From Candidatus Saccharicenans sp. (GTDB lineage Bacteria > Acidobacteriota > Aminicenantia > Aminicenantales > Saccharicenantaceae): a stretch of DNA of 64,000 nucleotides. The DNA lies in NCBI GenBank assembly GCA_049719515.1, contig JBNARJ010000011.1, positions 816 to 64,815 of the forward strand, written 5' to 3'. The position numbers were made by a program, and so were the translations under genes. Below the pieces are notes generated by a model that made no database searches, had not been told where the DNA came from, and worked only from the letters and a program-made list of their open reading frames with translations. Shown one piece after another: positions 6,335 to 63,734 of the stretch (positions are counted from its first letter, which is position 1; each line of letters opens with the position of its first letter).

Positions 6335-6536
6335 TTTACCGTGCCTTCCAGCAACTAAATTTTATCTTATTTTCTATTTAACCGATATAGAAAGAGACGG
6401 CAAGAATTGCCGGGGAAAAAATAAATCATCTTCGGCAGAAATCTGGAAAATGGTGAAAAACAGGTCTTGATGCGGTCTGCGCCGGGCAGACCTAAGCTCG
6501 TGGTCAGGGTGAGGTTTTAACTGAACAATTTTGTTG

Positions 6537-38910: not shown

Positions 38911-39429
38911 ATGAGCAGTAAAGCAGGAGAAGTAAAAATGGAAAAAGACACTATCATCCTTGGAGTGATAGGAGCCGATTGCCATTCGGTGGGCAATAAA
39001 ATTCTGGAATTGTTTTTTAGCTCTGAGGGTTTTAGGGTGGTTAACCTGGGAGTAATGGTTTCTCAACAGGAGTTTATCAACGCGGCCATTGAGACCAATG
39101 CCAAAGCCATCCTGGTTTCCTCTCTGTATGGTCATGGGGAAATTGATTGCCAGGGGTTCCGCGAGTTGTGTCTGGAGAAAGGGCTGGACCCGATAATCCT
39201 TTATGTGGGCGGAAACCTGGTGGTGGGGAAAACGCCTTTTTCGGTGGTGGAAGAAAAATTTAAGAAGATGGGCTTTGACCGTGTCTTCCCGCCTGATGTG
39301 GACCTGAAGAAGGTGGCTGAACTGCTCAGGCAGGATATCAGGGAAAAATTCGGTCAGTTGGCTTCCGACAATAAAAGCCAGCTTCTCACTGAAGAAAAAA
39401 CCGATGGCGGTCAGCCGAACAGGCCTTGA
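38911..39429 (+). CDS. glmS: Glutamate mutase sigma (S) subunit, B12-binding (alternative start at 38938 MEKDTI...)
   Basis: GVIGADCHSVGNKIL carries the DxHxxG cobalamin-binding motif and matches GlmS/MamA N-termini. About 160 aa. Confidence 0.85.
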   Translation: MSSKAGEVKMEKDTIILGVIGADCHSVGNKILELFFSSEGFRVVNLGVMVSQQEFINAAIETNAKAILVSSLYGHGEIDCQGFRELCLEKGLDPIILYVGGNLVVGKTPFSVVEEKFKKMGFDRVFPPDVDLKKVAELLRQDIREKFGQLASDNKSQLLTEEKTDGGQPNRP

Positions 39430-40835
39430 ACATGAAGACCATAATCAGTATTGACATAGGTTCTACCTGGACAAAGGGCGGAATTTTTGTCCTGGAAAAT
39501 TCGGCACTCAAACTGAAGAAAAAAGTGGTGTTGCCCACCACGCAATCCAACCTTGTCCTGGGTTTTTCCGAAGTGCTGTCCGCTCTCCTGGAAAAGGAAA
39601 AATCCACGCCTTTAGAGATGTTATCCGGCTCGGCCGAATTATTTTTTTCTTCTTCAGCTAAGGGCGGGTTGAGAATCTCAGCCATCGGTCTTGTTCCGGA
39701 CCTGACTCTCCAGTTGGCCAGATTGGCCGCCATGTCGGCCGGGGGCAAGGTCATTCAGAGTTTTTCTTTTGCCCTGACCAGGAGCGACGTAAAAGAGCTG
39801 GAAAAGCAGCGGCCGGATATCATCCTGTTCAGCGGGGGAACCGATGGCGGAAACAGCAAGTACATCCTGGAAAATGCTCTGAAGCTTAAAGCCTCAGAGA
39901 TTTCCTGTCCCATAGTGTACGCCGGCAACCGGGCGGTGGCTGACGAGGTGGCGGATATTCTCCGCGAAAAAGAAGTCATCATCACGGAAAACCTGATGCC
40001 AGAAATAGGTCAGGTTAATATCGAACCCGTGCGGGAAAAAATACGTGAAATTTTCCTCAAGCGAATTGTCAGCGGACGCGGGCTAACGCAAATCGTAGAA
40101 AATTTTGGTACCCAGCCCAAACCAACGCCGCTGGCCGTCTATGAATTGATTTCGGCCATTCCCGCCCACCATCCTGAATGGTCAGATCTGGCTGCTATTG
40201 ATATTGGCGGGGCGACCACTGATTTTTATTCCAACACTGAATCTTATCTGGAAACCGACTCGGTCATTCTCAAGGGAGTTCGTGAACCGAGAGTTAAAAG
40301 AACGGTTGAAGGCGACCTGGGCCTGAGAGTTTCAGCCCATTCACTTTATGACACGGCGCGGGATTATTTAGAAGGTCGGCTGAAAGAACTTGGGCTTAAG
40401 ATGGAAAAGCTGGAAGAATACGTTGACAGGATTGCCAGGACGACTGAATACCTGCCCAGGACCGAGGAAGAAATTCTTTTTGACCGTTTGCTGGCTGAAG
40501 CCTGTGTGTATTTTTCTGCTCTAAGACACATCGGTGGCTGGAAAGAAACTTTTACTCCGCAGGGGAAGGTCTATGTGCAGACCGGAAAAGACCTCAGGCG
40601 AGTTAAAGCCATTATTGGCAGCGGCGGTTATCTTTCACAGGAAAGGTCAGCTGAAGTAATGCAACGGCCGCTGGAAAAACTTAAATTTTACGGGGATGAA
40701 AGAAAACTCACGCCGGAAAAACCTGAATTCTACCGTGACCGAGATTATCTTTTTCCTCTGCTTGGCAACCTGGTTGAGAAATATCCAAAAGAAGCGGCTT
40801 CCGCCGCCTTGGCTTCTTTAGAAAAATTATCATGA
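39426..40835 (+). CDS. glmL: Glutamate mutase accessory protein GlmL/MutL
   Basis: 469 aa, lying between the S and E subunit genes as in clostridial glm operons. An N-terminal IDIGSTWTKG actin/ASKHA-like motif. ATGA overlap with glmS. Confidence 0.7.
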   Translation: MNMKTIISIDIGSTWTKGGIFVLENSALKLKKKVVLPTTQSNLVLGFSEVLSALLEKEKSTPLEMLSGSAELFFSSSAKGGLRISAIGLVPDLTLQLARLAAMSAGGKVIQSFSFALTRSDVKELEKQRPDIILFSGGTDGGNSKYILENALKLKASEISCPIVYAGNRAVADEVADILREKEVIITENLMPEIGQVNIEPVREKIREIFLKRIVSGRGLTQIVENFGTQPKPTPLAVYELISAIPAHHPEWSDLAAIDIGGATTDFYSNTESYLETDSVILKGVREPRVKRTVEGDLGLRVSAHSLYDTARDYLEGRLKELGLKMEKLEEYVDRIARTTEYLPRTEEEILFDRLLAEACVYFSALRHIGGWKETFTPQGKVYVQTGKDLRRVKAIIGSGGYLSQERSAEVMQRPLEKLKFYGDERKLTPEKPEFYRDRDYLFPLLGNLVEKYPKEAASAALASLEKLS

Positions 40836-40847
40836 GAGGTTAGGAAG

Positions 40848-42296
40848 ATGATTAAGAACCAAAAAATAGACCTTAAAGAATTCCTGGAAATCAGAAAAGA
40901 AGTTTTGCAAACCTGGCCTACCGGCCAGAATGTTTCAATTGAAGAAGGAATAAGATACCACCGGACGATTCCGGAAGAAAAGAATTTCTCGTTAGCCATG
41001 CTCCGGGCGAAAAAGAGTCGAAAAACCCTTCTTCAGCCAAGAGCCGGTGTGGCACTGATTGATGACCACATCAAGCTGCTGCGCTACTTAGAAACAGAAG
41101 GACAGGCTGACCTTCTGCCGACGACTATTGACGCCTATACCAGACAAAACAGGTATGAAGAGGCAGAAAAAGGTATTGAAAAATCAAAGCAAGCCGGCAC
41201 CTCCATGCTCAACGGGTTCCCGGCGGTCAATTATGGTGTCGAAGGCTGCCGGAGGGTGGTGGAAAGCGTCATCCGTCCAGTTCAGGTCAGGCACGGCACG
41301 CCGGATGCCCGGCTGCTGGCCGAGATAACCCTGGCGGCCGGTTTTACCAGCTTTGAAGGTGGCGGCATCTCTTACAACATTCCTTATGCCAAGCGAGTTC
41401 CGGTGGAGAAATCTCTTAGAGACTGGCAGTATGTCGACCGTTTGGTCGGTATATATGAAGAAAACGGAGTAAGAATAAACCGAGAGCCATTCGGACCTCT
41501 TACCGGCACTTTGGTGCCGCCGTGCATTTCTATCGCGGTGGGAATCATAGAGGGGCTGTTGGCAATTAAACAGGGGGTAAAGTCAATTACCTTGGGATAC
41601 GGGCAGGGCGGCAACATCATTCAGGATGTGGCCGCCATTGCTGCCCTTCGAGAGCTGGCTGAAGAATATTTTCGCCAGGAAGGCTATGATGACATTGAAC
41701 TAACCACTGTCTTTCACCAGTGGATGGGCGGTTTCCCGGAGGATGAAGCCAAAGCCTTTTCGGTAATTGCCCTGGGAGCCATCGTGGCCAAACTTTCGGG
41801 CGCAGAAAAAGTTATCGTCAAGTCGCCGCATGAAGCCATGGGTATTCCGACCAAAGAAGCCAATGCCCAGGGGCTGCGAGCCACCCGCCAGGCTATCAGC
41901 ATGGTAGAAGACCAGGTGATTTTTAAGCCCGAAGACCTTAAAACCGAAGTCGACTTAATAAAGGAAGAGGTCCGTTGTCTGATGAATAAAGTTTACGAAC
42001 TCGGCCATGGTGATGTGGCCGCAGGCACAGTGGCTGCTTTTGAAGCGGGTGTGCTGGACATTCCTTTTGCGCCTTCCATCTACAACCACGGGAAAATAAT
42101 CCCGATGCGTGATAACGAAGGCTTTATCAGGATTTTCAGCAAAGGGAATTTGCCGCTCAGCGAGGAAATCATGGCTTACCATCGGCAGAGGCTGCAGGAA
42201 AGAGCCAGAGCGGAAGGGCGGGCTATCAGCTTTGAGATGGTCACTGACGATATTTATGCCATCAGCAAAGGAAAATTAGTTGGGAGGCCCAGATGA
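40848..42296 (+). CDS. glmE: Glutamate mutase epsilon (E) subunit (methylaspartate mutase)
   Basis: 482 aa. The size and TIM-barrel-like pattern match GlmE. Its position follows glmL. Confidence 0.8.
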
Positions 42297-43546
42297 AAAT
42301 AAAAAGAGTTCTGTTTGTTCCTGGGAAATCGGCTTTCTTTTTTGATGACCAGAAAGCCATTAAAAAAGGAGCCAGGCCGAACGGTTTTGTCTACGAGGGC
42401 AAAGCCGTGACCAAAGGGTTTGAAAGGATCAGAATAGCCGGTGAAAGCATTTCCGTCATCCTGGAGCTGGAAGACGGACAATTGGCCGTGGGTGATTGCG
42501 CCGCTGTGCAGTATTCCGGGGTTGGTGGCCGTGACCCGCTTTTTCTGGCCGAACACTACCTGCCCTTCATGGAAAGGCACCTCAAACCACTGCTTGAGGG
42601 GCTGGAAGTAACTTCCTTCCGTCAGCTGGCTGACCGCTTTGAAAACATGAAATTTGAGGGAAAGAGGCTTCATACGGCCATCAGATACGGTTTATCGCAG
42701 GCTCTGCTGGACGCCCGGGCTAAAGCCGAAAAAAAGCTTAAGACGGAAGTCATCTGCGAAGAATATAACCTGCCGATTATCCCCGAGCGGATAAAAATTT
42801 TCGGGCAGTCCGGGGATGACCGTTACACCAATGCGGATAAGATGATCCTCAAACAGGTCGATGCTCTGCCTCACGCGCTGATCAACAACGTTGAGGACAA
42901 GCTGGGTCGCCAGGGAGAAAAATTGAGAGAATACATTCGCTGGCTGGTTGCCCGGATAATCAAGCTGAGAACCAGAGAAGATTATCGGCCTGATATTCAT
43001 ATTGATGTCTATGGAACAATAGGCCTCATATTTGATGGAGACACGGAACGGGTGGCGGATTATCTGGCTTCCCTGGAAAAAGAAGCGGACGGGTTTAATC
43101 TCTACATAGAAGGCCCGGTCGATATGGAAGAAAAATACCGGCAGATGGAAGCCCTGGCCAGGATTACCAGGAAGCTGGAATCGATGGGGTCGAGGGTAAA
43201 AGTGGTGGCTGACGAACACTGCAATACTCTGGAAGATATCAAGGAATTTACCGATGCCCGGGCCTGCCACATGATTCAGATAAAAACGCCCGACCTGGGT
43301 GGCATTCAGAATGTGGCGGAAGCCAATCTCTACTGTAAAGCTCATGGAATAGAAGCCTATCAGGGCGGTACCTGCAATGAAACTGACATTTCAGCCCAGG
43401 CCTGCGTGCACGTGGCCATGGCCACCAGACCGGACCGCATGCTGGCCAAACCGGGGATGGGCTTTGACGAAGGTTTCATGATTGTGAATAATGAAATGGA
43501 ACGAATCATCCGGGTGCTGAAGATGAAATACGCGGAGAATAAATAA
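42293..43546 (+). CDS. mal: 3-Methylaspartate ammonia-lyase (beta-methylaspartase, enolase superfamily)
   Basis: 417 aa. An N-terminal [20 protein letters not shown]...-type beginning and enolase-superfamily layout. ATGA overlap with glmE. Confidence 0.8.
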
Positions 43547-44929
43547 ATGAAAAAAGCCAGTCAGAAAAAAATAAAACTTCCACCCTTTAAAATTCTTTCG
43601 ACCACGGCCATCCTGGGCTACGGCTTCCCGGAGAGCTCTTTTCGCCGCGGCCTGAGCCGGAAGCCAGATTTAATCGCGGCGGATGCTGGCTCGACCGACC
43701 CGGGACCGTATTATCTCGGAGCCGGGAAATCCTTTACCAACCGCACCGCGGTTAAAAGAGATTTGCGGCTGATGATAAAGGCCGGGGTAGAAAAAAATAT
43801 CCCGGTTATCATCGGTACGGCGGGCGGTTCAGGGGCCAGGCCACACCTGGAATGGTGTTTGGAAATTGTGCGAGAAATTGCCAGAGAAGAAAAGCTTCAT
43901 TTCAAACTGGGTATTGCCCATGCCGATGTGGATAAAAAGACCGTAAAAGAGGCTCTCAAGAAAGGGAACATCAAACCGCTGCCCTTCGTGCCCGAGCTCA
44001 CGCCAGAAGTTGTTGACCAGAGTGAAAACATCGTGGCCCAAATGGGGGTGGAGCCGTTCATCAAGTTGCTGGAACAGGGTTGCCAGGTCATTGTGGCCGG
44101 TCGGTCTTATGACCCGGCTGTTTTTGCCGCTCTGCCCATTGCCCGCGGTTATGACTCCGGGCTGGCACTTCACCTGGGAAAGATTCTGGAATGCGCGGCC
44201 ATCGCCGCCACTCCAGGTTCCGGTTCTGATTGCGCTCTGGGGATTCTGGAAGAAGATTCTTTTGTCTTGGAAGCCCTTTCCCCGGAAAGAAAATTCACCC
44301 CACAATCAGCGGCCGCTCATACCCTTTATGAGAAATCAGACCCTTACGAGCTTCCTGGCCCGGGTGGCGTCATAAACTTAAGAGAATGCAGCTTTGAGGA
44401 TATAGGCCATGGCCGGGTTCGGGTCAGGGGGAGCAGGTTCATTCCGACTGAACAGTACTGGGTTAAACTCGAAGGGGTCAGGCTCATCGGCCACAGGTCA
44501 ATCAGCGTGGCTGGAGTTCGTGACCCAATCATGATTTCAAAGATTGATGAAATTTTGAAAGCGGTGGAAGCCAGGTCCAGAGAAATAATGGGGCAGGAAG
44601 CCGAGCAGGGCCGGATATTTTTCCACGTTTACGGAAAAAACGGGGTGATGGGGCAGCTGGAGCCGGTTAAGAAGATTCAGTCGCATGAACTTGGCCTGGT
44701 GATTGAGGCCATCGCCCCCACCCAGGAAGCGGCCGATGCTTTGCTGGCTGTGACCCGTTCGGCTCTTTTACATTACGGATATGAAGGACGGATAGCTACG
44801 GCCGGCAACCTGGCCTTTCCTTTTTCGCCTTCCGATGTGGCCATGGGCAAAGTATTTGAGTTTTCAATCTATCACCTCATGAAGCTTGAAGACCCGGCCC
44901 TGTTTAAAACTGAAGTGGAAAAAATTTAG
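43547..44929 (+). CDS. DUF1446 (AtuA-like) family protein, tentative
   Basis: 460 aa. Assigned by recall of the AtuA-like N-terminal region. It is followed by a small ORF that resembles the DUF4387 partner. Not verified by search. Confidence 0.4.
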   Translation: MKKASQKKIKLPPFKILSTTAILGYGFPESSFRRGLSRKPDLIAADAGSTDPGPYYLGAGKSFTNRTAVKRDLRLMIKAGVEKNIPVIIGTAGGSGARPHLEWCLEIVREIAREEKLHFKLGIAHADVDKKTVKEALKKGNIKPLPFVPELTPEVVDQSENIVAQMGVEPFIKLLEQGCQVIVAGRSYDPAVFAALPIARGYDSGLALHLGKILECAAIAATPGSGSDCALGILEEDSFVLEALSPERKFTPQSAAAHTLYEKSDPYELPGPGGVINLRECSFEDIGHGRVRVRGSRFIPTEQYWVKLEGVRLIGHRSISVAGVRDPIMISKIDEILKAVEARSREIMGQEAEQGRIFFHVYGKNGVMGQLEPVKKIQSHELGLVIEAIAPTQEAADALLAVTRSALLHYGYEGRIATAGNLAFPFSPSDVAMGKVFEFSIYHLMKLEDPALFKTEVEKI

Positions 44930-44939
44930 GGGGACATAG

Positions 44940-45287
44940 ATGGCCCAAACAAAAAGAAAAATCAGTAAAGTTAGTAAAAAAAGAAGTATCCTGGAAGTGG
45001 CCAGGGTTATCCGTTCAAAAAACTCTGGACCTTTTGAGCTGACTCTTGATATCATGTTCAAGGACAAGAAATATTTTGATTACTTCCGTAAGAAAAAGGT
45101 CATTACGGCCAAAAAGATAGCCAGGCTCTACGGGATTCCGGAAACCGAGGTGCTTAAGATTGTTTACTTTGAACCGAGCCAGGCCATCAAAGTGACCATA
45201 AAAAGGAAAATACCATCGGGCTCACCCGGCGACACGGATATTTACGGAGCTCAGCAGCATGCGCCTTTGCTGGACCTGACCTTTTAA
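44940..45287 (+). CDS. DUF4387-like small protein (partner of DUF1446), tentative
   Basis: 115 aa. GPFELTLDIMFKD ... YGAQQHAPL pattern as recalled for DUF4387. Combined length with the preceding ORF is about that of fused AtuA proteins. Confidence 0.4.
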   Translation: MAQTKRKISKVSKKRSILEVARVIRSKNSGPFELTLDIMFKDKKYFDYFRKKKVITAKKIARLYGIPETEVLKIVYFEPSQAIKVTIKRKIPSGSPGDTDIYGAQQHAPLLDLTF

Positions 45288-45312
45288 GCCCCGGCGGGCT
45301 TGAGGATAGATA

Positions 45313-46263
45313 ATGGACCCAAAGCAGCTGTCCAGAATTGACACGCTGATTTATGCCGTTTATTACGCGCCCCGCGGACGCTACCGTCTGTATATGGTGG
45401 CCAGTGAAATCGCGCGGCGGTATCTTACGCCCACCGATTATCTGATAGGTATCATAGGGGAAGAAGGAGCCGGCAAATCAACCCTGATTCGTGGCCTTTT
45501 CCCCGGGCTGGAGTTGACCAATGAGGATGAGGGAGTAAACGTCCGGCGGGCACCAATATATTCTTTTTCGCCGGATGATTATTTTTCTGGCCACACTTTT
45601 CACATTGATGTCAGGCACGAGCTGGCCTTTACGCAAAAGTACAAGATTAGGGAAGCAATCAGACGCGCCATAGAGCACAAGCGTCGGGTGGTGGTAGAAC
45701 ATTTTGACCTGATTTATGATGTGCTGGGCTGCAATGCCCAGGTGTTGATTGGCATCGGGGAAGAAATCATCGTGGCCCGGCCGACCGTGTTTGGCCCTTT
45801 TCCCGAGAACATAAAAACAATTGTGGATAGAACCATCAAGTACCGCCTGATGGCGCATTCGGCCGAGGATATAACCACCTATATCCTGGAAAGAGATTAT
45901 CAATACCGTTCTTCGTCGCCTCTGATTCACTCCGATATCAGGCATGGCTTTGTCATAAATTTCAGCGAAAGGCCGGATATCGACCTGGATGAACTCGAAG
46001 AAAAAGTGAAGAAAATCATTGCCGCAGACTTGCCGATAGTCAGCGTGCCCGGTGAAGACGCCATTAAAGTAGGAGACATCAAAATTTACTGCACGGGGCC
46101 GAGGACGCATGTGGACCGCACCGGACAGATAGAGAATTTTCGGCTGCTGAAAGAGTTCAGGCTGAATCCGCTGACCAATGAATTCATGCTCATCGGCATG
46201 GTCGGCCAGAAAACCATCGCCGGTTTTGAGGATATCATCGAGTACATGGACATCGAAGACTGA
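45313..46263 (+). CDS. Hypothetical P-loop NTPase / kinase-like protein
   Basis: Walker A-like IGIIGEEGAGKSTLI. No G-protein G4 (NKxD) motif, so not a MeaB-type chaperone. Confidence 0.4.
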   Translation: MDPKQLSRIDTLIYAVYYAPRGRYRLYMVASEIARRYLTPTDYLIGIIGEEGAGKSTLIRGLFPGLELTNEDEGVNVRRAPIYSFSPDDYFSGHTFHIDVRHELAFTQKYKIREAIRRAIEHKRRVVVEHFDLIYDVLGCNAQVLIGIGEEIIVARPTVFGPFPENIKTIVDRTIKYRLMAHSAEDITTYILERDYQYRSSSPLIHSDIRHGFVINFSERPDIDLDELEEKVKKIIAADLPIVSVPGEDAIKVGDIKIYCTGPRTHVDRTGQIENFRLLKEFRLNPLTNEFMLIGMVGQKTIAGFEDIIEYMDIED

Positions 46264-46289
46264 ATCTTAATTTAGGGGGAGAAGAAACC

Positions 46290-47888
46290 ATGAGATTTAA
46301 ATACGTCCCGCTTTTGCCCAGAGAAAAGCAAAAAATCAGTTACGAAAAATTGACTGACCAGTTTGTAAAAGAAATAAAATGGCGCGGCCGGACCTTCCTC
46401 GAAGTAAAACCCGAGGGGCTGCGGCTTCTGGCCAGAGAAGCTTTGGCCCGGGTAAACTTCTATTTTAGAACTTCTCACCTTGAAAACCTGGCCTCGATTA
46501 TAGACGACCCGGAGGCCTCAGAAAACGATAAGTACGTGGCGGCCATGCTAATAAAAAATGCCATAATTTCGGCTGAAGGGCAGCTGCCGCTCTGCCAGGA
46601 TACGGGTACGGCCAACATCATCGGTTACAAGGGAGAAAATGTGCTGACCGGAGTTGATGATGTTAAATACCTGAGCTGGGGAGTTTTTGACGCCTATACC
46701 GGTCTGAACCTCAGAGCCTCCCAGAATGCACCGCTTTCCATGCTGGAGGAAAAAAATACCGGAAACAACCTGCCGGCTCAGGTGGAGATTTTCAGCACGA
46801 AAGGCAATGAATATCACTTTTACATCATGGCCAAGGGCGGGGGCTCTTCCAACAAGACGGCTCTTTACCAGGAGAACAAATCTCTGTTAAAAGACGATAA
46901 AACGCTGTATGAATTTTTGAAGGACAGGATAAAAGCCATCGGGGTGGCTGCCTGCCCGCCTTACCGGATTGCCGTGGTGGTTGGCGGTCTCTCGCCGGAA
47001 ATGAACCTCAAGACGGTGAAGCTGGCTTCGGCCGGTTTTCTTGACGGCCTGGTCACCAGGCCAACCGGTGAACCGCACGGGTACCGTGATTTGGAGTGGG
47101 AAAAGAAAGTGATGAAAATTGCCAGAGAAACAGGTCTGGGCGCGCAGTTTGGTGGAGTGGCCCTGGCGGTAGAAGCAAGAGTGATCAGGCTTCCCAGGCA
47201 TGGAGGGTCTCTGCCGGTGGGTATTGGGGTAAGCTGCAACGCTGATAGAAACATAAGGGCAAAAATAAACCGGTATGGTCTTTTCCTCGAAAAGCTCGAC
47301 CGGAACCCAAAGCGCTTCCTGGAAAAGGTGGAAAGCTTGAAGCTGGAAAAGGTGCCGGAGGTCGATTTGGACCAGGGCCTGGAGGGGCTGGTGGAGGAGC
47401 TTTCTAAATATCCGGTCGGCAGCCGGGTGAGCCTCACCGGGACGCTGATCGTGGCGCGGGATATGGCTCATCTGAGGTTGAAGAAAATGCTTGATGAGGG
47501 CAGGCCGCTGCCTGAGTACTTTAAAAAATATGCTGTTTATTATGCCGGGCCGGCCAGGGCACCAAAGGGCCTGCCCACCGGAAGTTTTGGGCCGACTTCA
47601 GCTCAGAGAATGGATAATTACGTTGAAGAATTCATGAAGGCCGGGGCTTCAAGAGTAATGCTGGCCAAGGGCAATCGGTCGGAGAAAGTGGTTGAGGCCT
47701 GCCGAAGGTATCGTGGCTTTTACCTGGGCACCATTGGAGGAGCAGCCGCCCTGGTGGCCAAGGAGCACATAATTTCCAGTGAGCTTCTTGATTTTGCCGA
47801 TTTGGGTATGGAAGCCATCAGGAAAATTGTGGTGAAAAACCTGCCGGCTTTTATCATTATTGATGATAAAGGGAATAAGCTGTATTAG
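46290..47888 (+). CDS. Class I (Fe-S) fumarate hydratase family, fused alpha-beta form; candidate mesaconase
   Basis: CQDTGTA motif of the Fe-S hydro-lyase alpha domain and a C-terminal beta-domain in one 532 aa polypeptide. It closes the methylaspartate operon. Confidence 0.75.
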   Translation: MRFKYVPLLPREKQKISYEKLTDQFVKEIKWRGRTFLEVKPEGLRLLAREALARVNFYFRTSHLENLASIIDDPEASENDKYVAAMLIKNAIISAEGQLPLCQDTGTANIIGYKGENVLTGVDDVKYLSWGVFDAYTGLNLRASQNAPLSMLEEKNTGNNLPAQVEIFSTKGNEYHFYIMAKGGGSSNKTALYQENKSLLKDDKTLYEFLKDRIKAIGVAACPPYRIAVVVGGLSPEMNLKTVKLASAGFLDGLVTRPTGEPHGYRDLEWEKKVMKIARETGLGAQFGGVALAVEARVIRLPRHGGSLPVGIGVSCNADRNIRAKINRYGLFLEKLDRNPKRFLEKVESLKLEKVPEVDLDQGLEGLVEELSKYPVGSRVSLTGTLIVARDMAHLRLKKMLDEGRPLPEYFKKYAVYYAGPARAPKGLPTGSFGPTSAQRMDNYVEEFMKAGASRVMLAKGNRSEKVVEACRRYRGFYLGTIGGAAALVAKEHIISSELLDFADLGMEAIRKIVVKNLPAFIIIDDKGNKLY

Positions 47889-48338: not shown

Positions 48339-48364
48339 TAATGTTGATAGTGAGGAGATTAAAT

Positions 48365-50413
48365 ATGCGCAAACCGCCAGTTTACCTGCTTTTGTTAATT
48401 TCCCTGACTTTTGTGACCATCGTGGCTGCGGCGGCCGGGGAAAAACACTATATTTTGTCCGGAGGAGAAAGAGATTTCTATTTCGCTCATATAAGTTATC
48501 TGCCGGCTGACCTTGGGAGCAAAAACCCGGAGGTCTTGAGAAGCGGGATAGCAGGAGCCGAGGAAGTACAGCTTAATCTTCCTCTTGTCCCGGGCGATGT
48601 TCTCGTCACCTACGACCGTCCGTGTGAAGTTCAATTTGACTCGGGAACGATAGTTAGGCTGGATGTTGATTCCAGGTTGAAAATAGAAACCGTCCTGGCT
48701 CAGACCTTAAGTTCTGAGGAAAAACTTTCCAGTCTTTTTCTGGAAAAGGGGCGGCTGTATTTGATGTATACAGCCTACAATTCATGGGAAATTTTTCAGC
48801 TGGTAACACCCGCGGCCGCCCTGAAGATGAAAAATCATACCGTTCTGGTGGTGGCCCAGGATGAACCGGGTCCGACTAAGATAGCCGTTCTTCAGGGGAG
48901 TGCCAAGGTTCTTTTTGGCCCGGACGAGAAAAACCTCAGGACCCAGGCTTTAAAAAAAGGCCAGAACTTGATTATCAGCGGAGCTTCTCAAACAGAAAAA
49001 GTTTCTGTCATCAGCGAGTTCGGTGAGTTTGTGGCCTGGAATGAAAAGATAAACAGGGAATTTGTGGAGCTCCATAAAGGCCTGACTCCACTCCCCAAAC
49101 CAGTTCAAAAATTGCCCTCAGCTGTTTTTTACTTTGCTCAGTATTATGGCAACAAATACGGAGAGTGGCTGTGGGATGACCTCTATGGTTATGTCTGGCG
49201 GCCTTTTTACAATGATATCTATCCCTGGGGCAACTGGTCCCCTTATTTTTATGGTCGCTGGTCTTATGTAAACGGAGAGCTTTTCTGGGTGCCGGAGGAG
49301 CCGTGGGGCTGGGTGCCTTATCATTTGGGAATCTGGCAGTGGGACAAGAAGCTCGGCTGGGTTTGGATACCGGGTTCGGTTTTTGCCCCGGCTTGGGTTG
49401 ACTGGTGTTTTTATTACGGTTACTTCAGCTGGCGGCCCTGGACGCTGAGTGATTTCCTGTTTTATGCCTATTACGGTCTGGGAACCGGTGATTATTACTG
49501 GAACAATTACTGGACAGGCTGGTCGACCGGTTCCTATTTTGCCGGAAACCAGATGAATAATTTCCTCAAAAAGGTCAGCAAGGACCAGCTCAAGAAGAGA
49601 AGCAGTGTGATTCCTTCAGAATTCAGGCAAGTATTGAATACCATGGCGCAGGCCGTAGAAAAGAATGACAGGACAGTGCTGGAAAGAATAGAGGGTAAAT
49701 CCCCGGCGGTGATAATTAGAAGGGAAGATATAGCCAGGACAGACCTCAGGTCGAGGATGATTACCTCTCCGGATAAAATTCAGGAACAGTTGAAAAATCA
49801 ACCTTCCGCTCCTTCAGCGGTTAAAGAAATTGCCGGTACAGGGTCTGCCAAAAACCCGGCCGAGGAGTTTTTAAAATGGCGGCAGGCCCAAGCCGTTTCT
49901 GAGAATAATGCCGGGGAAGCTGTTCGCCGAGTGGTAGCAGTGATGGACCGGAAACAGGTCCAGAGTCAGAGAAGCGCTGCTAATTTTCCTTCTCCAAGGA
50001 ATAATCCGGCAGAATATCTTAATGCCCCGGAAGCCAGGCGGGCCGAAAATGCCCGCAAGGCCGGCGGACCCGTTTTTAATCAGAGGCTCAGGTTCCGCGA
50101 CTGGAACCCTGATGTCCGGGTGGCCAGAGAAGCGGGTTTCAGCCTGGTGTATGATAGCTCTCGGAATGCCATTGTGGTTCCTGAACTGGGGGTAAGTTCG
50201 CGGGAAGCAAAAGAATGGAGGGTGAGGCTGACGCCCTCGGGTCTAATTCAGCATGTGCCTTCAGGTTGGGCGGATAACAGCAGCAGTTATATTTCATCTG
50301 ATTCTTCCTCCCCAGTGCCAACGGTTTCTCCCAAGACGATGTCTTCCGGCAGCTCAAATTCTGGACACAGCAGCGGTGGCAATTCCTCCAATGCCGGACG
50401 AGAAAAACACTGA
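48365..50413 (+). CDS. Secreted protein: FecR-like domain plus Trp/Tyr/Gly-rich repeat region plus Ser-rich C-terminal tail
   Basis: A signal peptide after MRKPP (start moved from 48341 to the second Met, which has an SD). A central region with more than 20 Trp (WGWVPYHLGIWQWDKKLGWVWIPG...). A Ser/Gly-rich tail. Confidence 0.5.
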   Translation: MRKPPVYLLLLISLTFVTIVAAAAGEKHYILSGGERDFYFAHISYLPADLGSKNPEVLRSGIAGAEEVQLNLPLVPGDVLVTYDRPCEVQFDSGTIVRLDVDSRLKIETVLAQTLSSEEKLSSLFLEKGRLYLMYTAYNSWEIFQLVTPAAALKMKNHTVLVVAQDEPGPTKIAVLQGSAKVLFGPDEKNLRTQALKKGQNLIISGASQTEKVSVISEFGEFVAWNEKINREFVELHKGLTPLPKPVQKLPSAVFYFAQYYGNKYGEWLWDDLYGYVWRPFYNDIYPWGNWSPYFYGRWSYVNGELFWVPEEPWGWVPYHLGIWQWDKKLGWVWIPGSVFAPAWVDWCFYYGYFSWRPWTLSDFLFYAYYGLGTGDYYWNNYWTGWSTGSYFAGNQMNNFLKKVSKDQLKKRSSVIPSEFRQVLNTMAQAVEKNDRTVLERIEGKSPAVIIRREDIARTDLRSRMITSPDKIQEQLKNQPSAPSAVKEIAGTGSAKNPAEEFLKWRQAQAVSENNAGEAVRRVVAVMDRKQVQSQRSAANFPSPRNNPAEYLNAPEARRAENARKAGGPVFNQRLRFRDWNPDVRVAREAGFSLVYDSSRNAIVVPELGVSSREAKEWRVRLTPSGLIQHVPSGWADNSSSYISSDSSSPVPTVSPKTMSSGSSNSGHSSGGNSSNAGREKH

Positions 50414-51373: not shown

Positions 51374-51572
51374 CCTATTTAAAAATTTAAAAGACGGAAG
51401 GTCTGATATATCAGATATCAGAAAAAGTTATCTAAAAAAAATGGCTCCCATCAGCCCTTTTTGCTTTTCCCCTTTGTCAGAACACATGATTAGGATGACG
51501 AAATTTATTTTTGCAGAAAAAATTTGCAAATTTTTGGGTGTTCAATTAAGGTTAAAGGCCGAACAGTAATGT

Positions 51573-53948
51573 TTAATATGCCAGTTTTTTGTTTCGCGTT
51601 GGGCGGTAACTCCAGCCTTCTCCGTCCCAGAATCTTATTTTTTCTTTAAGAATTCTGAGTTCAGTAAGAGCCTGAGGGGGCAAAATCCCCTGAACCATGA
51701 ACTCTTTGATTTTCTCTATGGTCATGTCAGTCGGGCGGGAAAAAAGCGGTTGAAGATGGTAATCAAAATTATATATAATTTCATAAGGATTTTCCTTTGA
51801 AAATTCAGTCACGGACGCCTCTATCTTTTTATCTGTTCTGAGCAATTCAAGCTGACGGGTGTAATTTCTTAAGGCCATAACCTGGTTTAAGGTGGTTCGA
51901 GGGAACAGGATATAATATTCCTGTGTTCCGGGCGGGAGGCCTTGAAACTGGAATTCCGGGTTGCCGCTGGAGGGGGAGCATCCTTCGACCTTTCGGGGGT
52001 CAAGCACCAGCAGGCAGGCGCACTGGAAATCATTGTTGGTTCCGCCGAGGATAATTTCATTCCAGCCATCTTCGTCAATATCCTCGACCAGGCAGGCATC
52101 TCGGTTGAGATGACCGGCCTGCCAGTATTCTCCAATTATCCGTCCTGATGAGTTTAGAAGGGTGATTTGAACCGGATACCAGGTCGCATGGTTGGCCACC
52201 ACCAGGATGAATTTTTCCTCTGAGTTATTTTTGAGCTTCCAGATGCCCAGGTTCCGCACAATGTAGTTGTTGGAGAATTCGTCATTCAGTGTTTTAATCC
52301 TTTTACCCGGCTCAAATGACCAGCGCAGCTGACCATTTGGCTCAAAAAGTAATATTTCGGAAGTTCGCTTCTCCTGCTCTTTATAGTTTACGCCCACCAG
52401 TATTTCTTTTTTTCCGTCTCCTTCAAGGTCCATCAATTTCTGGGTCAGGCTTTCTGTTTCGGCTGAGCTTTTAAGCTGGTAGGCCCAGAGGACTTCTTTT
52501 TTTTCACCTATGGCCAGGAGTTTGTCATGATGCAGCTCCATGGCCACCACCGGCCTGGATGTCTTGAATGGAAAATAATTAGACCGGCTGCCAAACATGA
52601 ATAAAAAGAACAGACCGGTCAAAAACAGGACTGAAAAAAATGTTTTGGCCACGAGCTTTCTTTTAGTCTTTATAAGCCAGATTATTTTGGAAGTGGAGTT
52701 TCTCTGGATTAAACGCTCATCTTCGATAATGTCCATCAGACTTTTTGCCCCGATGAGCTCCAGCCGGCGGTGGGTGTGCCCGGTCAGAAACTGATAAAGA
52801 ATGAGACTGGCTTCCTTCATGTTTTCTTCAGGTATAACTAAGTAACGAATCCCTGAGTAAAAAGCTGCTTTAATCTTCATCTCCAGGCTTTCTGGTTCGA
52901 TGCGCAAAACCTGGCCATTCAGGTCGACCCGACCGGTAAAAGCTGCCTGCCGGCTTATCGATAAAGAGTGTGGTGCTTTGAAAGTCCTGAGCTTTTGAGC
53001 GAGGGCCAGCAGGGTGACCGGCAGCCCGAGGCTCTGCCCGGGATAAATGAACTTTTTATCAGGAAAAGAAAAAATTATAAAAAATGGGGGAAGTTCCAGC
53101 CTGAAGGCCCTGTGAAGGACATAATCGGCGGCTTCGAGACCGTCAGCTAAGGAGGCAGAAAGTGCTTCCTCCAAAGAAGACATCAAATTAGAAAACTTAA
53201 AGATGTTTTGACCGTCGGCCACCGCCATTTTTCGGCCATGAGCTGAAAGGGAAATGATTCTGGCTTTTTCCGGAGGGGAAAAAGTTTCTCTTTTTTCGAT
53301 CAGTGAACAGTAGAGGCTGTCTGAGGAAAAACCGCGGTACTTCTCCCATTTTTCAAAGATAAAATCTTTATCAGCCAGGATTTCTTCAGGCAATCCGGCT
53401 GAATTAAAAAATTCAACACACATTTCCAGGTTGGATAGCCGGGTGTTTTTGATCCTGAGAATCTGCTCGTAAGATAACGGACAAACAGCCGTCAGCAGGT
53501 CCTTAGCTTCTGGCACCGGGCCGCCTTTTAGCAGCCTGTTTTTAAAAACAAGGGCCTGACAGGCGCGGTCGAGTTCTCCCAAATAAAAATATTGAAGAGC
53601 CAGATAAAAGAGCAGGTTGGTCAGCCCCTCTCGGATGAGATTTTGGTCGAGCTTATCGGGGAATTTTCGGTAGAAATTGACTGCAGACTCAAAAATCGTC
53701 AGCAATTCATCTGGTGGAACAGATTCTGGCTGCATGCTGGCCAGCAGATAGAAAAACACGCCAGCGTACTGAAGATAAAATGAATAGACCAGGTCTTCGT
53801 TTAATCCTCTGGTTTCGTTTATGAACTGACAGATGACACGGACGCGGGAGGCGTCATCGGCCGCCAGAGTTATTTCGGATATGCTTCTGCGAAATAATTC
53901 CTCCAGTTGCAGGGGAGAAAGCTCGGGCGAGGAAGATGTGTTATCCAT
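51573..53948 (-). CDS. Large membrane protein: N-terminal unknown domain, Lon-like (S16) Ser-Lys protease domain, single TM helix, C-terminal periplasmic FG-GAP/beta-propeller-like domain
   Basis: PGQSLGLPVTLLAL...AAFTGRVDLNGQVLRIEPESLEMKIKAAFYSGIRYLVIPEEN aligns with Lon GPSAG...[28 protein letters not shown].EN, with the catalytic Ser and Lys conserved. The TM helix is FFSVLFLTGLFFLFMFG. The C-terminal region has DIDEDGWNEIILGG, which is FG-GAP-like. Confidence 0.55.
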   Translation of the reverse strand: MDNTSSSPELSPLQLEELFRRSISEITLAADDASRVRVICQFINETRGLNEDLVYSFYLQYAGVFFYLLASMQPESVPPDELLTIFESAVNFYRKFPDKLDQNLIREGLTNLLFYLALQYFYLGELDRACQALVFKNRLLKGGPVPEAKDLLTAVCPLSYEQILRIKNTRLSNLEMCVEFFNSAGLPEEILADKDFIFEKWEKYRGFSSDSLYCSLIEKRETFSPPEKARIISLSAHGRKMAVADGQNIFKFSNLMSSLEEALSASLADGLEAADYVLHRAFRLELPPFFIIFSFPDKKFIYPGQSLGLPVTLLALAQKLRTFKAPHSLSISRQAAFTGRVDLNGQVLRIEPESLEMKIKAAFYSGIRYLVIPEENMKEASLILYQFLTGHTHRRLELIGAKSLMDIIEDERLIQRNSTSKIIWLIKTKRKLVAKTFFSVLFLTGLFFLFMFGSRSNYFPFKTSRPVVAMELHHDKLLAIGEKKEVLWAYQLKSSAETESLTQKLMDLEGDGKKEILVGVNYKEQEKRTSEILLFEPNGQLRWSFEPGKRIKTLNDEFSNNYIVRNLGIWKLKNNSEEKFILVVANHATWYPVQITLLNSSGRIIGEYWQAGHLNRDACLVEDIDEDGWNEIILGGTNNDFQCACLLVLDPRKVEGCSPSSGNPEFQFQGLPPGTQEYYILFPRTTLNQVMALRNYTRQLELLRTDKKIEASVTEFSKENPYEIIYNFDYHLQPLFSRPTDMTIEKIKEFMVQGILPPQALTELRILKEKIRFWDGEGWSYRPTRNKKLAY

Positions 53949-54636
53949 AGATGTTAATTTGAACCTTCTCAGAATTTATGAACCTGGCCGGAACCTCAAA
54001 AAGGGCCATATTTTTAAAGGACGTGGCTATCAGGGGTTCTTCCCCCTCTTTAACCAAAACCATTTTTTTCAGTTTCAGTGCGGAGTTTGGGTTCAGGAAC
54101 TTGACCTTGATGGTCAGGTCTCGTTCCTGGCTGAATATTTCAACTTCGAGGGCTGATTCTTTAAAGCTTTCTATGCACCAGGCCTGTTTGAGAAAGGCAG
54201 TTTGCTTTGTTTCGGGCGGAGAGAATTCAAAAATGGCTGCCGGGGGCATGAGCTTTATTGACGGATTAGATAATTCCAGGTCCTCAAGCGAAACCAGCCC
54301 GTGAGAATCGGTCAGGTAGCACCGGGCTTGGTCCCTGGGGCAGATAAACACATACTGGTAACCGGATTTTTCTCGATGCAACAGGTGAGCCTGCAGCTGA
54401 TGATGGATCGGATCATTTATGATTCTTAAAAGATACTGTCCGTCAGATGAAGCCAGCGAGATCTTTTCTGAGTAATAATCGGCCGCAGATAAATGACTGA
54501 ATCCTATCAGGTTGGGAAAAGGAGGAGTTTCAGACCTGACTTTATGCAGGCAAACATTGAACAGAGGCGGTCCCTCAGTTTTATTTTCTCCACAACAAGA
54601 AATTATTTTTTCAATTAATTCTTTCCTGGTTTTCAT
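53941..54636 (-). CDS. Hypothetical protein (middle gene of three-gene operon)
   Basis: 231 aa. Translationally coupled to neighbours (8 nt and 4 nt overlaps). No motif recognised. Confidence 0.45.
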   Translation of the reverse strand: MKTRKELIEKIISCCGENKTEGPPLFNVCLHKVRSETPPFPNLIGFSHLSAADYYSEKISLASSDGQYLLRIINDPIHHQLQAHLLHREKSGYQYVFICPRDQARCYLTDSHGLVSLEDLELSNPSIKLMPPAAIFEFSPPETKQTAFLKQAWCIESFKESALEVEIFSQERDLTIKVKFLNPNSALKLKKMVLVKEGEEPLIATSFKNMALFEVPARFINSEKVQINIYG

Positions 54637-55679
54637 TTACCCGCCTGTGCACACTGATAGTTGATTTGTTCCAACTTTTGTTTCAAGAATTCCCTTGAAT
54701 TTTTTACCAGGTATTCAAAAATCATTCTCTTGTTCTGCCGGTAGTCGTCAGGAGTAATTTCTGGAAGATGACGTTTAAGGTAATTATAGAGAGATTTTTC
54801 CTGGCCACCGTCCTGCCAATCTCGGAAGAGGTCATTAAGAGCCAGCAGCCAGGCTTCCTTTTCTTTGTGGTTTATTCTTTTCTTCTGGACGTATTTTCCG
54901 ACCAGCCGTTTGTTATAATTCATAAGTTCTTCAAACCACTGCTGTAAATTTTTGTTGACATCGTAAACCGGGTATCTGTCCGGCGAATAAAAAGCGGCTC
55001 CGGCTTCGACCATTAGATAATATTTCTGTACGGAAACAAAAAGGTCATAAATCCCGGAAAGTGACATTTCTAAGCCGGCGCCATTATTTTCGAGTATTTC
55101 AGCCAGCCGTCGGAAAAATTTGGGAATCTGTAACCCGCCCAGCCGGTTTTTTAGACATAGGCTCAGCAAACCATCTATCTCATTTGAATAAATTACCGAG
55201 GGCTCGCCTTTCGGCCGGAAGGTTATTTGTGGATTGTTGGACCTGTTCTTTATCTTGAACTGGCTGGTCTTTTTCAAAGCGTAAAGGATTTCTCTTTTTA
55301 TTTTATTTCTTTCCGGTGTTATTTCATTGCTCAGGAAATAGTAGGTTTGTTTCAGTCTGCGTAAAAGTACGCTTCGCAGATAACGCTGGAAGTCCTCTTC
55401 ATTTGAGGCCAGAAATTTTTCCACTGTTTTCCAGTCAAACAGGCGTTCCAGCACCGGGTATCTCCCCTTACTGTTCTTGATGAACAGATTGGAGATGGCC
55501 AGATAGGCGATGTCCCTTGGCTCGTAATTGGCCAGGTACAGATGATACCCCCGATTTTTCTTGATAACGGGAAGTAACTCGTCAACCATGGCTGTAATCA
55601 GGTCTCGCAGGTCTTTTTCCGAATACTGATTGTTAATGACCAGAAGTAGCTTGAGCAAAAGGTTTTTCTGGAGGGCCAT
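54633..55679 (-). CDS. Hypothetical protein (first gene of three-gene operon), faint sigma-70 region-2-like segment
   Basis: 348 aa. DIAYLAISNLFIKNSK is reminiscent of sigma region 2.2-2.3, but this is weak. No HTH was recognised with confidence. Confidence 0.4.
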   Translation of the reverse strand: MALQKNLLLKLLLVINNQYSEKDLRDLITAMVDELLPVIKKNRGYHLYLANYEPRDIAYLAISNLFIKNSKGRYPVLERLFDWKTVEKFLASNEEDFQRYLRSVLLRRLKQTYYFLSNEITPERNKIKREILYALKKTSQFKIKNRSNNPQITFRPKGEPSVIYSNEIDGLLSLCLKNRLGGLQIPKFFRRLAEILENNGAGLEMSLSGIYDLFVSVQKYYLMVEAGAAFYSPDRYPVYDVNKNLQQWFEELMNYNKRLVGKYVQKKRINHKEKEAWLLALNDLFRDWQDGGQEKSLYNYLKRHLPEITPDDYRQNKRMIFEYLVKNSREFLKQKLEQINYQCAQAGK

Positions 55680-55893
55680 GTCAGTTTTCTCTGATCATCG
55701 TCATTTTTGCTATTAGTTTATCAAAAAAAACGCGGCCTTTGTCAACAGCATTAACTTTTTGTCAAAATTATTTGGATTTTTGCCTGTCTATTGAGTATAA
55801 TCAGTATGCAGGTAGGTTAACCTGGGGAGGGTTGACTTATTTGCCTTTTTTAGCTAATATTTTAAATCATTTTTAAGAGAGAGATGGCACAAA

Positions 55894-62360: not shown

Positions 62361-63734
62361 TCAATCGACTATCTTGATGGTGGTGGAATGCCGGTTGACT
62401 TCAATTATTTCTGATTCATCCGGCGGGACACCCAGGAAATCAGCCACCGGTTTGACCAGTTTCTGATAATTAAGGACAGCCGTGACGGTGAGCGGACCGG
62501 GTGGCAGATCTTCAGGGAGCTGAAAAGTGCAGGTTTCAATCTTTGTTTCCCGGGGACCGATTCGGTAATCAACGCCGAGCGATTTGGTGTTCCACTGCTG
62601 GATGGTCATCCGGCCCTGGGGGTCAAAGTAAGCCATGCGGAAGATGCGGTCGCCAACCGGCAGGCCGTCACGCTGAACCCCCTTAAAATTCGGGTCACCC
62701 AGAGCAATACCCATATCCTGGTAAGCCAGGGTGTCAGCCGCGATGGTGTATTCTTCTCCTTCAAAGCCTTTTTTATCAACCGGCAGGTGATAGACTTTTC
62801 CTTTAGCATCAACCGCTTCAACGTGCATCCAGACAATGCGGTCTTCCACTGACCCGGTCGGAAACTTGTGGCCGGTTTTCTGGTTAAAAAGCACAATGGT
62901 GAATCTGACCCGGTCGCCGGGCGCAGCTTCGTTAACATCAGGATGAACCCGTAATTCAATGGTACCTTTAATCTTGCCCGGGTCGTGCGCCCCGTGGAAA
63001 AGGTGCTGTCGCACGTCGGGATAGGTGTTGCCCATGGAAGCGCTCTTGCCCGGGGCATAGGTCATGTGGCAGTCATGGCATTTTACACCCTGCCTGGCGT
63101 AAGGACCTTCTTTCCACTCCAGGTGGGTGGATTTTACCCACACACCGTAGGGGCTTTTTTCGTTGTGGCAGGTGCCGCAGAATTCAGCCGTGCTGAGGAA
63201 TTCAGATTTAACCATGTTGTGTTCGGGCGAAATTTTCCCTTCCCGCGGCCCGTACTTGTTCTTGCCCGGCTCGGAAATCCAGTTGAAATTGTGAGGCACA
63301 TCGCCGGCAAAACCGGTCACCGTGTGGCAAACTTCGCAGGAAACCGATTCGTTGGCCCGGCTGCCCTTGGCCGGAAGGGGTGGCGGCACATCGCCGGCCA
63401 GGAAGGCAATCGGCGTATGGCAGCCGTTGCAGCCGGCTTTTACTCCGGCCACTACCGGGTCTTTCTCCGCCTGGGGAACAGCCAGCTTGAAATATTCAAT
63501 TTCGTCCCAGTGGTGGGTGTAGGCCTGGGACATCATCGCCTGTTTCCATTGCTGATAGATATCATTGTGGCATTGCAGGCCGCAGAAGGTTGGTGTCTGA
63601 TAATCGCTGTATTTTCTCGTGCCAAGGGCCTCGTCTCCGGCTTTCTGCAGGCTGGACGATGTGACAAAACCGAGAGAAATCGCAGCCGAGATAATAAAAA
63701 TGATTAAAATGAATGTGCCCGCGCGGTTCATCAT
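62361..63734 (-). CDS. Multiheme c-type cytochrome (five CxxCH), N-terminal membrane or signal anchor, C-terminal beta-rich domain
   Basis: CGLQCH, CNGCH, CEVCH, CGTCH and CHDCH. An N-terminal hydrophobic segment (FILIIFIISAAISLGF). 32 bp upstream of the Cyc2-like gene on the same strand. Confidence 0.7.
   Translation of the reverse strand: MMNRAGTFILIIFIISAAISLGFVTSSSLQKAGDEALGTRKYSDYQTPTFCGLQCHNDIYQQWKQAMMSQAYTHHWDEIEYFKLAVPQAEKDPVVAGVKAGCNGCHTPIAFLAGDVPPPLPAKGSRANESVSCEVCHTVTGFAGDVPHNFNWISEPGKNKYGPREGKISPEHNMVKSEFLSTAEFCGTCHNEKSPYGVWVKSTHLEWKEGPYARQGVKCHDCHMTYAPGKSASMGNTYPDVRQHLFHGAHDPGKIKGTIELRVHPDVNEAAPGDRVRFTIVLFNQKTGHKFPTGSVEDRIVWMHVEAVDAKGKVYHLPVDKKGFEGEEYTIAADTLAYQDMGIALGDPNFKGVQRDGLPVGDRIFRMAYFDPQGRMTIQQWNTKSLGVDYRIGPRETKIETCTFQLPEDLPPGPLTVTAVLNYQKLVKPVADFLGVPPDESEIIEVNRHSTTIKIVD

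Follow-up and report, generated by a model that had tools for sequence, protein, structure and literature searches.

Which role can be given to three consecutive, co-directional genes, here called A, B and C, that lie among housekeeping genes in a genome of Candidatus Saccharicenans sp. (Acidobacteriota, Aminicenantia)? They are encoded on the minus strand of the window, i.e., the whole stretch of 64,000 nucleotides analyzed here (assembly GCA_049719515.1, contig JBNARJ010000011.1). Open reading frames (ORFs) define gene A (348 aa, 54633-55679) and gene B (231 aa, 53941-54636), and gene C (791 aa, 51573-53948) is described by its ORF, by homology and by a structural model as coding for a single-pass membrane protein. 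The A/B junction (...AAATGAAAA) has a 4-nt overlap, ATGA, and the B/C junction (...TCTATGGATAACAC) an 8-nt overlap, ATGGATAA, in agreement with the first-pass annotation of this DNA, which had described three translationally coupled ORFs of these lengths. On balance, we favor the view that the operon encodes a three-part transmembrane signaling device, in which C would be a receptor-protease, B an adaptor or inhibitor and the likely substrate, and A the presumed output.

The central part of C (aa 206-420, 52689-53333, minus strand) resembles the LonB-like (S16) proteolytic domain, as indicated by Foldseek comparisons with the PDB, partial Pfam and NCBIfam matches and PDB sequence matches. The AlphaFold2 (AF2) model of C, built with 18 homologues, has a mean predicted local distance difference test (pLDDT) score of 78.9, and its top 50 Foldseek matches in the PDB are all Lon or Lon-like proteases (E 2e-10 to 1.5e-7). 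Compared with isolated Lon P-domains, the model reaches target-normalized TM-scores of 0.72-0.79, with a root-mean-square deviation of 3.5-7.3 Å over ~208-236 alignment columns. Sequence searches pick up only the half of the domain that carries the lysine. NCBIfam LonB models match C at E 2e-5 to 5e-5, and the Lon P-domains of A. fulgidus, M. jannaschii and E. coli are retrieved from the PDB at E 4e-4 with the single sequence and at E 3e-3 with a profile, while the Pfam Lon_C model stays below its cutoff of 21.1 bits in the window protein and exceeds it in the family member P0057 (25.9 bits).

The first-pass annotation had aligned three motifs of C with the Lon proteolytic domain, including the catalytic serine and lysine, i.e., PGQSLGLPV (aa 303-311), FTGRVDLNGQVLRIEPESLEMKIKAA (aa 337-362) and VIPEEN (aa 371-376), and this assignment holds as a prediction. 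Ser306, the predicted nucleophile (codon 53031-53033, minus strand), lies in a Y-x-G-x-S-x-G motif at the N-terminus of helix 305-322, and Lys358, the predicted general base (codon 52875-52877, minus strand), lies in L-x-x-K-(I/V)-x-A-A-F within helix 352-363. In the AF2 model both residues occupy the same secondary-structure positions as in Lon. Alignment with hhalign against the P-domain of E. coli Lon places K358 on the catalytic K722 with a probability of 82%, and PDB sequence searches also align it with the lysine of LonB chains. S306 and K358 are invariant in the 18 close homologues of C as well as in 26 family members that are just 18-33% identical to it. The 26-member alignment has only 9 invariant columns, G304, S306 and K358 among them, and T338 and G339, which match the "TG" motif of Lon, are nearly invariant. 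Such strict conservation at this level of divergence would be expected if C is an active enzyme rather than a scaffold. Fold comparison and residue conservation thus support that C carries a Lon fold with a predicted Ser306-Lys358 catalytic dyad. As also noted earlier, C has no AAA+ module, since neither Pfam nor NCBIfam detected one and the model shows aa 1-205 as all-helical, without a beta-sheet.

This all-helical N-terminal domain (aa 1-205, 53334-53948, minus strand) comprises 11 helices, mostly with pLDDT values of 83-94, and has no Pfam match, and it is conserved across the family, with many matches beginning at profile positions 4-36. The Lon-like domain is followed by a single transmembrane (TM) helix (aa 432-454, 52587-52655, minus strand; Kyte-Doolittle hydropathy over 19 residues, KD19, 2.08; model helix 430-453), which is the only strongly hydrophobic segment in A, B or C. 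Six lysine or arginine residues occur in the 17 residues before this helix and three after it. This positive-inside bias, together with the lack of a signal peptide, suggests that the Lon-like domain is cytoplasmic and the beta domain outside, so that an N-in, C-out topology is favored. The C-terminal part (aa 465-791, 51576-52556, minus strand) is an all-beta, FG-GAP/VCBS-like domain according to the model and weak Pfam matches, and is the presumed extracytoplasmic sensor. It is modeled as ~20 beta-strands (aa 465-740) followed by two helices and a disordered tail, has conserved DxDxDG loops (DLEGDG, DIDEDG) and ends in a YWDG..W motif. FG-GAP_3 reaches 14.7 bits in the window protein, against a cutoff of 26.9, next to a weak Beta-prop_CGLA match. 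Relatives score above threshold, i.e., P0066 with FG-GAP_3 (31.6 bits), P0059 with FG-GAP (26.5 bits) and a paralogue in locus L031 (34.3 bits). The order proposed in the first-pass annotation, with a Lon domain in the middle of the protein, then a membrane span and then an extracytoplasmic FG-GAP-like domain, is therefore borne out by the model, the hydropathy and charge profile and the scores of the relatives.

The apparent distribution of these proteins depends on the search used. Word-indexed searches retrieved homologues only from Aminicenantes (19 for C, 31 for A and 6 for B). On the other hand, when representatives of 50%-identity clusters were searched exhaustively in HMMER with a profile of aa 1-428, the cytoplasmic half of C, 778 of them matched at E ≤ 1e-3, of which 533 reached E ≤ 1e-10. 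Most of them are 710-830 aa long with a layout like that of the window protein. The organisms, where the source gives one, are Acidobacteriota, Zixibacteria, Marinimicrobia or "bacterium", and the protein names found are in all cases "hypothetical protein" or "VCBS repeat-containing protein".

The three genes also stay together outside Saccharicenans. In the distant loci L039 (Zixibacteria), L040 (unclassified bacterium), L041 and L042 (Marinimicrobia), C is preceded by two co-directional genes of ~290-363 aa and then 239-291 aa, in unrelated neighborhoods. Hidden Markov models (HMMs) built from the Saccharicenans proteins recognize the first as A (E 1e-12 to 1e-21) and the second as B (E 1e-8 to 1e-23), with negative cross-controls, and A homologues upstream of distant C genes are detected overall at E 1e-12 to 1e-43 (hmmsearch against a small database). 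A metagenome scan of one distant C clade gave 16 loci, and A followed by B lies directly before C in 12 of the 12 that have enough upstream DNA. The same arrangement precedes C in two loci of another sensor type (L060 and L061, described below) and in the propeller-type locus L062. The triad, whose absence from other genomes would have spoken against a functional unit, is thus a widespread, cross-phylum bacterial module and not a lineage-specific one. In distant loci, the genes that follow the triad directly often code for secreted or surface proteins of very large size (L039:9538-13350, L041:8397-14235, L040:8944-13862 and L042:9070-10848). The domains of these secreted proteins or type IX secretion system (T9SS) cargo include BACON/PKD/CBM96, Sortilin-BNR/Por_Secre_tail, Fib_succ_major, PEGA and Cohesin, and the neighbors may represent a regulon or a ligand source.

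Within the C family, the outside domain can be exchanged. A subgroup of ~1030-1060 aa (P0067, P0114, P0122 and P0189) has a Laminin_G_3 (LamG) region in place of the propeller, and the LamG-type loci L060 (C at 3593-6730) and L061 (C at 3185-6310) keep A- and B-like genes upstream. In turn, other Aminicenantes and Acidobacteria encode proteins of ~450 aa with a helix-turn-helix (HTH) domain, a TM helix and an FG-GAP-like domain, in which the C-terminal two-thirds correspond to the TM-plus-propeller region of C at 25-32% identity. The HTH is of the excisionase/MerR type (Pfam HTH_17, 33 bits in one of them). The same outside domain thus feeds either an HTH or a protease domain, and the Lon-like module takes either a propeller or a LamG domain, which is how sensor and output modules of signal transduction behave. 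The cross-phylum triad, the LamG exchange and the propeller-HTH paralogues support the earlier suggestion of a transmembrane signaling protease.

The HTH-TM-propeller paralogues were found in L026, L027 and L030-L035 (e.g., L031:5746-7122 and L033:5473-6831), with several copies in some genomes. Genes for extracytoplasmic function (ECF) sigma factors lie ~110-320 nt upstream on the opposite strand in L032 (4645-5190, minus), L033 (4781-5332, minus) and L034 (3795-4346, minus), and in L038 an ECF sigma gene is located near a frameshifted paralogue. The divergent neighbor of the LamG-type locus L060 encodes a secreted LamG/fn3/Por_Secre_tail protein.

B is a soluble, fast-evolving protein without a hydrophobic segment (maximum KD19 0.95). 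The core common to every B is beta-rich and comprises ~170-200 aa; in the PDB it gave just a marginal match with an OspA-like repeat (E 0.74) that is not interpretable. The distant B proteins are longer by ~50-60 aa at the N-terminus, and this extension carries an H-x3-C-x2-C motif in the context "...L..%..G.L......I..HL..CEFCRE...". The motif occurs in 17 of 17 B proteins, i.e., those of L039-L042 and all 13 of the scanned Zixibacteria-like clade, although 3 of these 13 need GTG start codons to include it. As 60-aa N-terminal fragments, the B proteins of L054 and L056 match Pfam zf-HC2 (PF13490) with 29.0 and 28.0 bits (cutoff 22.2), and two further orthologues score below this cutoff (18.8 and 16.8 bits). 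A profile of the B family gave four matches among PDB sequences, three of which are anti-sigma factors aligned on HxxxCxxC (RsiW, E 0.013; RslA, E 0.19; DdvA, E 1.1). Based on motif and profile matches, we identify the N-terminal extension of the B orthologues as a predicted zf-HC2 anti-sigma domain. The B protein of L062 has the N-terminal region without the zinc ligands.

A relation between B and C beyond gene order is indicated by P0203, a protein of 968 aa from a metagenome (JGI 3300075153), which has a zinc-finger start (HLFRCDRC), a segment of the B core (E 1.4e-11 with the B HMM) and a complete C. This fusion argues for a physical interaction between B and C. The gene upstream of P0203 is cut off on the short contig.

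A is soluble and mostly helical, without a TM segment, and is basic throughout the lineage (isoelectric point 9.3-9.9; 9.6 in the window protein). It is the first gene of the triad in every case and, of the three proteins, the one that differs least between Saccharicenans subclades (~49% identity), and its 31 close homologues all come from Aminicenantes. The AF2 model combines a pLDDT of 80.3 with a predicted TM-score (pTM) of 0.41, which suggests well-formed domains in an uncertain mutual arrangement, namely helices at the N-terminus, a small alpha/beta unit at aa 141-206 and long helices at the C-terminus. D287 and Y300 are its invariant residues across the wide family, a pattern unlike that of an enzyme active site. 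No match was found for A in Pfam, NCBIfam or PADLOC, searches of 26 A homologues in Pfam gave no sigma families, and profile comparisons with PDB sequences gave nothing relevant. In Foldseek searches, the best PDB match had E 1.1, sigma-S chains appeared only at E 3-4 with a TM-score of ~0.2, and BFVD gave nothing below E 0.03. With hhalign, the probability of a relation to ECF sigma factors was 0.2-0.4%, using a small alignment of E. coli RpoE, B. subtilis SigW and ECF sigma factors from the fetched loci. There is a resemblance by eye between sigma region 2 and the consensus of the A family, "DLAID.LG.FL ... PF..IF.YF ... LL.G..RQ.L.RL", which we regard as a lead and not as a result, and the faint sigma region-2-like stretch noticed earlier in gene A found no statistical support in Pfam, Foldseek or hhalign.

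How could these three proteins work together? We hypothesize that the FG-GAP-like domain of C would sense an envelope or extracellular cue, and that the Lon-like domains would then be activated, plausibly by induced oligomerization in analogy to CalpL. C would cleave B, a cytoplasmic adaptor or inhibitor and its most likely substrate, and the cargo of B would be freed and change gene expression. This cargo would be A or, in the lineages with a zinc finger, perhaps a sigma factor. Since C has no ATPase, specific cuts would be expected rather than processive degradation.

The closest known parallel in logic is the CalpL-CalpT-CalpS system. CalpL combines an N-domain with a Lon domain (dyad S152/K193) and a SAVED sensor; binding of cyclic tetra-adenylate (cA4) leads to CalpL filaments, the anti-sigma factor CalpT is then cleaved by a neighboring subunit, and further degradation sets the ECF-like CalpS free (10.1101/2024.05.08.593097). 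Both systems are three-gene modules. Proteolysis is a signaling step and not bulk degradation in CalpL and would be so in A-B-C, one partner has anti-sigma character, which in A-B-C holds for most B orthologues but not for window B, and a third protein is released or, in A-B-C, would be. CalpL and C share the order of an N-domain, an ATPase-less Lon Ser-Lys domain and a sensor domain. As the order of domains is the same in C, except that a TM helix and an outside domain stand where CalpL has SAVED, we propose by analogy that the cutting of B is activated by an outside signal, and the helical N-domain, as the counterpart of the CalpL N-domain, may be the place where B or A docks. On the other hand, the sensor of CalpL is a cytoplasmic, cA4-binding SAVED domain, whereas that of C (FG-GAP-like or LamG) is extracytoplasmic behind a TM helix, and no SAVED or CARF domain was matched in C by Pfam. 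CalpT combines MazF-like and DUF2080 domains, whereas B has a zf-HC2 domain and a beta-rich core; CalpS is ECF-like, whereas A is not recognizably so by Pfam, hhalign or Foldseek; and CalpL is linked to type III CRISPR, whereas the neighbors of A-B-C are rpsP, rimM, trmD and era. CalpL was retrieved by C neither in the PDB sequence searches nor among the top 50 fold matches. A-B-C is therefore closest in logic to CalpL-CalpT-CalpS, yet it is not a member of the Calp family.

Other membrane signaling systems are related more loosely. In regulated intramembrane proteolysis (RIP), a membrane-spanning anti-sigma factor is itself the sensor and is cut by separate site-1 and site-2 proteases. The RseA/DegS/RseP (sigma-E) and RsiW/PrsW/RasP (sigma-W) pathways resemble the proposed mechanism in that an outside signal leads to proteolysis of an anti-sigma factor, and RsiW, like RslA, resembles the N-terminus of the B orthologues. 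However, B has no TM segment, and in A-B-C the membrane-spanning sensor would be the protease, with its active site in the cytoplasm. No site-2 protease (S2P) or DegS-like gene is present in the A-B-C operon. ToxR/CadC-like regulators and the HTH_17-TM-propeller paralogues share with C a single membrane pass, a cytoplasmic output and an outside sensor, but their output is a membrane-tethered DNA-binding domain, whereas that of C would be a protease acting on soluble partners.

Several observations weigh against the proposed receptor-protease mechanism. The Pfam Lon_C match of the window protein (aa 330-381, profile positions 128-177) stays at 18.9 bits, below the cutoff of 21.1. HxxxCxxC is absent from window B, from all other Saccharicenans B proteins and from those of the LamG-type loci L060 and L061, and the zinc finger, where present, may serve a different, trans-encoded sigma factor. 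Pfam, hhalign, PDB profiles and Foldseek related A to no known fold and gave no support for A as a sigma factor, a candidate identity that we set aside as unsupported rather than as disproved. Upstream of A, sigma70-like TTGACA boxes are found and an ECF-type autoregulated promoter is not evident, and no target genes of A-B-C could be identified within the window.

Alignment with the orthologues shows that most of the zinc-finger domain is gone in the Saccharicenans B proteins; window B lacks ~60 N-terminal residues, and its anti-sigma domain is vestigial. The idea of an anti-sigma-type switch, raised in the first-pass annotation, thus stands for the family, as most B orthologues start with zf-HC2, while window B itself lacks the motif and the label rests on its orthologues. 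Because the triad is kept where the zinc finger is lost, A-B-C must be able to work without it. As A is retained in the lineage of the window, either the B core binds A, or the zinc finger serves a sigma factor encoded in trans in those lineages that have it.

The latter option leads to the first alternative, in which C and B would act as proposed, B would hold an ECF sigma factor encoded elsewhere, and A would be an accessory protein that could serve, e.g., as an adaptor, as a chaperone for B or in the regulation of the protease. That zf-HC2 domains bind ECF sigma factors is established, the PDB matches of B agree with this, and A is not sigma-like by any test. Within the fetched flanks, a canonical ECF sigma gene adjoins the triad, in divergent orientation, only in L040 and L056/L057, and most triad loci have none. 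Moreover, the lineages without the zinc finger, the window included, keep A, which is better conserved than B and sits where a sigma gene normally precedes its anti-sigma gene. We consider this alternative unlikely, and retain A as the presumed output.

A second alternative is that C is a housekeeping protease of the envelope or membrane, an ATP-independent relative of LonB, with A and B as substrate adaptors. The nearest Lon relatives of C by sequence are indeed of the LonB type, the Saccharicenans neighbors (rpsP, rimM, trmD, era) are housekeeping genes, and distant loci often adjoin large secreted or T9SS cargo proteins. LonB and Lon-like S16 proteins (archaeal membrane LonB, MtaLonC and B. 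subtilis LonB) share the proteolytic fold and the Ser-Lys dyad with C and give its best matches by sequence and by fold, and archaeal LonB is membrane-anchored, as C is. However, the TM helix of C follows the protease domain and does not lie inside an ATPase, an AAA+ or AAA-like module is lacking, and C differs further by its large outside domain and by the partner genes dedicated to it. The lack of an unfoldase module, an outside domain of ligand-binding type that is swapped among lineages and is fused to a DNA-binding HTH in paralogues, and a partner that bears an anti-sigma domain all make a housekeeping function quite improbable.

The Lon-like domain of C could also be a non-catalytic scaffold, so that C would signal by binding alone. 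Lon-like pseudo-protease domains exist in RadA/Sms and ComM, and the sub-threshold Lon_C score of the window protein and a weak ChlI match in P0057 would be compatible with such a role. Nevertheless, Ser306 and Lys358 are strictly invariant together with the surrounding GxSxG and TG motifs, as would be expected under selection on catalysis, and a scaffold is in our opinion very improbable. The weakest explanation, to which we give hardly any credit, is an anti-phage or abortive-infection module with CalpL-CalpT-CalpS logic that would respond to damage of the envelope or to the adsorption of phage. The architecture resembles that of a CRISPR-associated defense effector, and integrase fragments lie a few kb off in one distant locus (L039), but A, B and C had no match in PADLOC-DB at E ≤ 1, no relatives were found in IMG/VR viral contigs, no CRISPR, cyclic-oligonucleotide-based anti-phage signaling system (CBASS) or other defense genes were noted among the called genes of the loci examined (no dedicated flank scan was made), and the position between core genes is fixed across the genus at ~45% protein identity, so that the earlier suggestion of a defense-related module is not upheld.

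Returning to the receptor-protease mechanism, it can be extended, more tentatively, to a general class, in which an interchangeable outside domain would switch an ATP-independent Lon domain, B would be cut, and A would be freed as the first member of a new family of transcription or RNA polymerase-binding proteins. We consider this generalization possible rather than probable. If correct, it would add a third general transmembrane route to transcription besides two-component systems and RIP-controlled ECF sigma factors, and this route would occur broadly in Aminicenantes, Acidobacteriota, Zixibacteria, Marinimicrobia and uncultured lineages related to them. The first description of signaling through the cleavage of an anti-sigma factor by a Lon-type protease reportedly came in 2023 with the CRISPR effector CalpL, and to our knowledge this kind of signaling has so far been tied to cytoplasmic cyclic-nucleotide sensing in immunity. 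Literature searches for a module combining Lon, a TM helix and an anti-sigma factor gave only the CalpL papers and unrelated work. The locus described here suggests that a CalpL-like logic is wired to extracytoplasmic sensors in a large, unannotated family of mostly uncultured phyla. If true, this would give a new type of receptor in bacterial signal transduction, functions for three orphan protein families, and an outside-in protease switch that is compact, works without ATP and could be used in engineering. The hypothesis lends itself to direct tests, as the predicted catalytic residues, the candidate substrate and the topology are specified.

Upstream of A, two TTGACA boxes, the second of which is followed by 17 nt and GATAAA, form a tentative sigma70-type promoter (55715-55765, minus strand). 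A TTGACA box is conserved at this position in L001, L002 and L004, while a consensus promoter scanner called nothing upstream of A. The operon shares a divergent intergenic region of 214 bp with rpsP, for which a promoter-like element, TTGACT-N17-TAATAT (55808-55861, plus strand), is strongly conserved in the same three loci.

On this side, A-B-C is flanked by rpsP, a KH-domain gene, rimM, trmD, rplS and rnhB, and on the other side by era and a gene for a FecR/DUF6600 protein. Within Saccharicenans, A-B-C is syntenic between rpsP and era, though the proteins are only ~45-49% identical. The FecR/DUF6600 gene (48341-50413, plus strand) encodes a secreted-looking protein of 690 aa that combines a FecR domain (27.4 bits), a DUF6600 domain and an aromatic and glycine-rich middle part. 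It adjoins era in all Saccharicenans loci, and was dropped as a fourth component of the system because none of the distant triad loci has it. A CoA_binding gene of ~130 aa lies between C and era in L001 (10678-11070), L002 and L004, and the window has an AT-rich gap of 199 bp (51374-51572) at the place where other Saccharicenans have this gene.

Further away, no tRNA genes and no Rfam families at gathering score were found in the whole 64-kb window. A multihaem cytochrome with NapC/NirT, c554 and MtrC-like domains is encoded at 62361-63734 (minus strand), followed by an ORF of 392 aa without a Pfam match. A complete-looking cluster for the methylaspartate pathway of glutamate fermentation occupies 38911-47888 (plus strand) and comprises genes for a B12-binding subunit, MutL, glutamate mutase E, methylaspartate ammonia-lyase and an AtuA-like protein, as well as an ORF with a weak, sub-threshold TsaE match and a gene for a class I fumarate hydratase or mesaconase.

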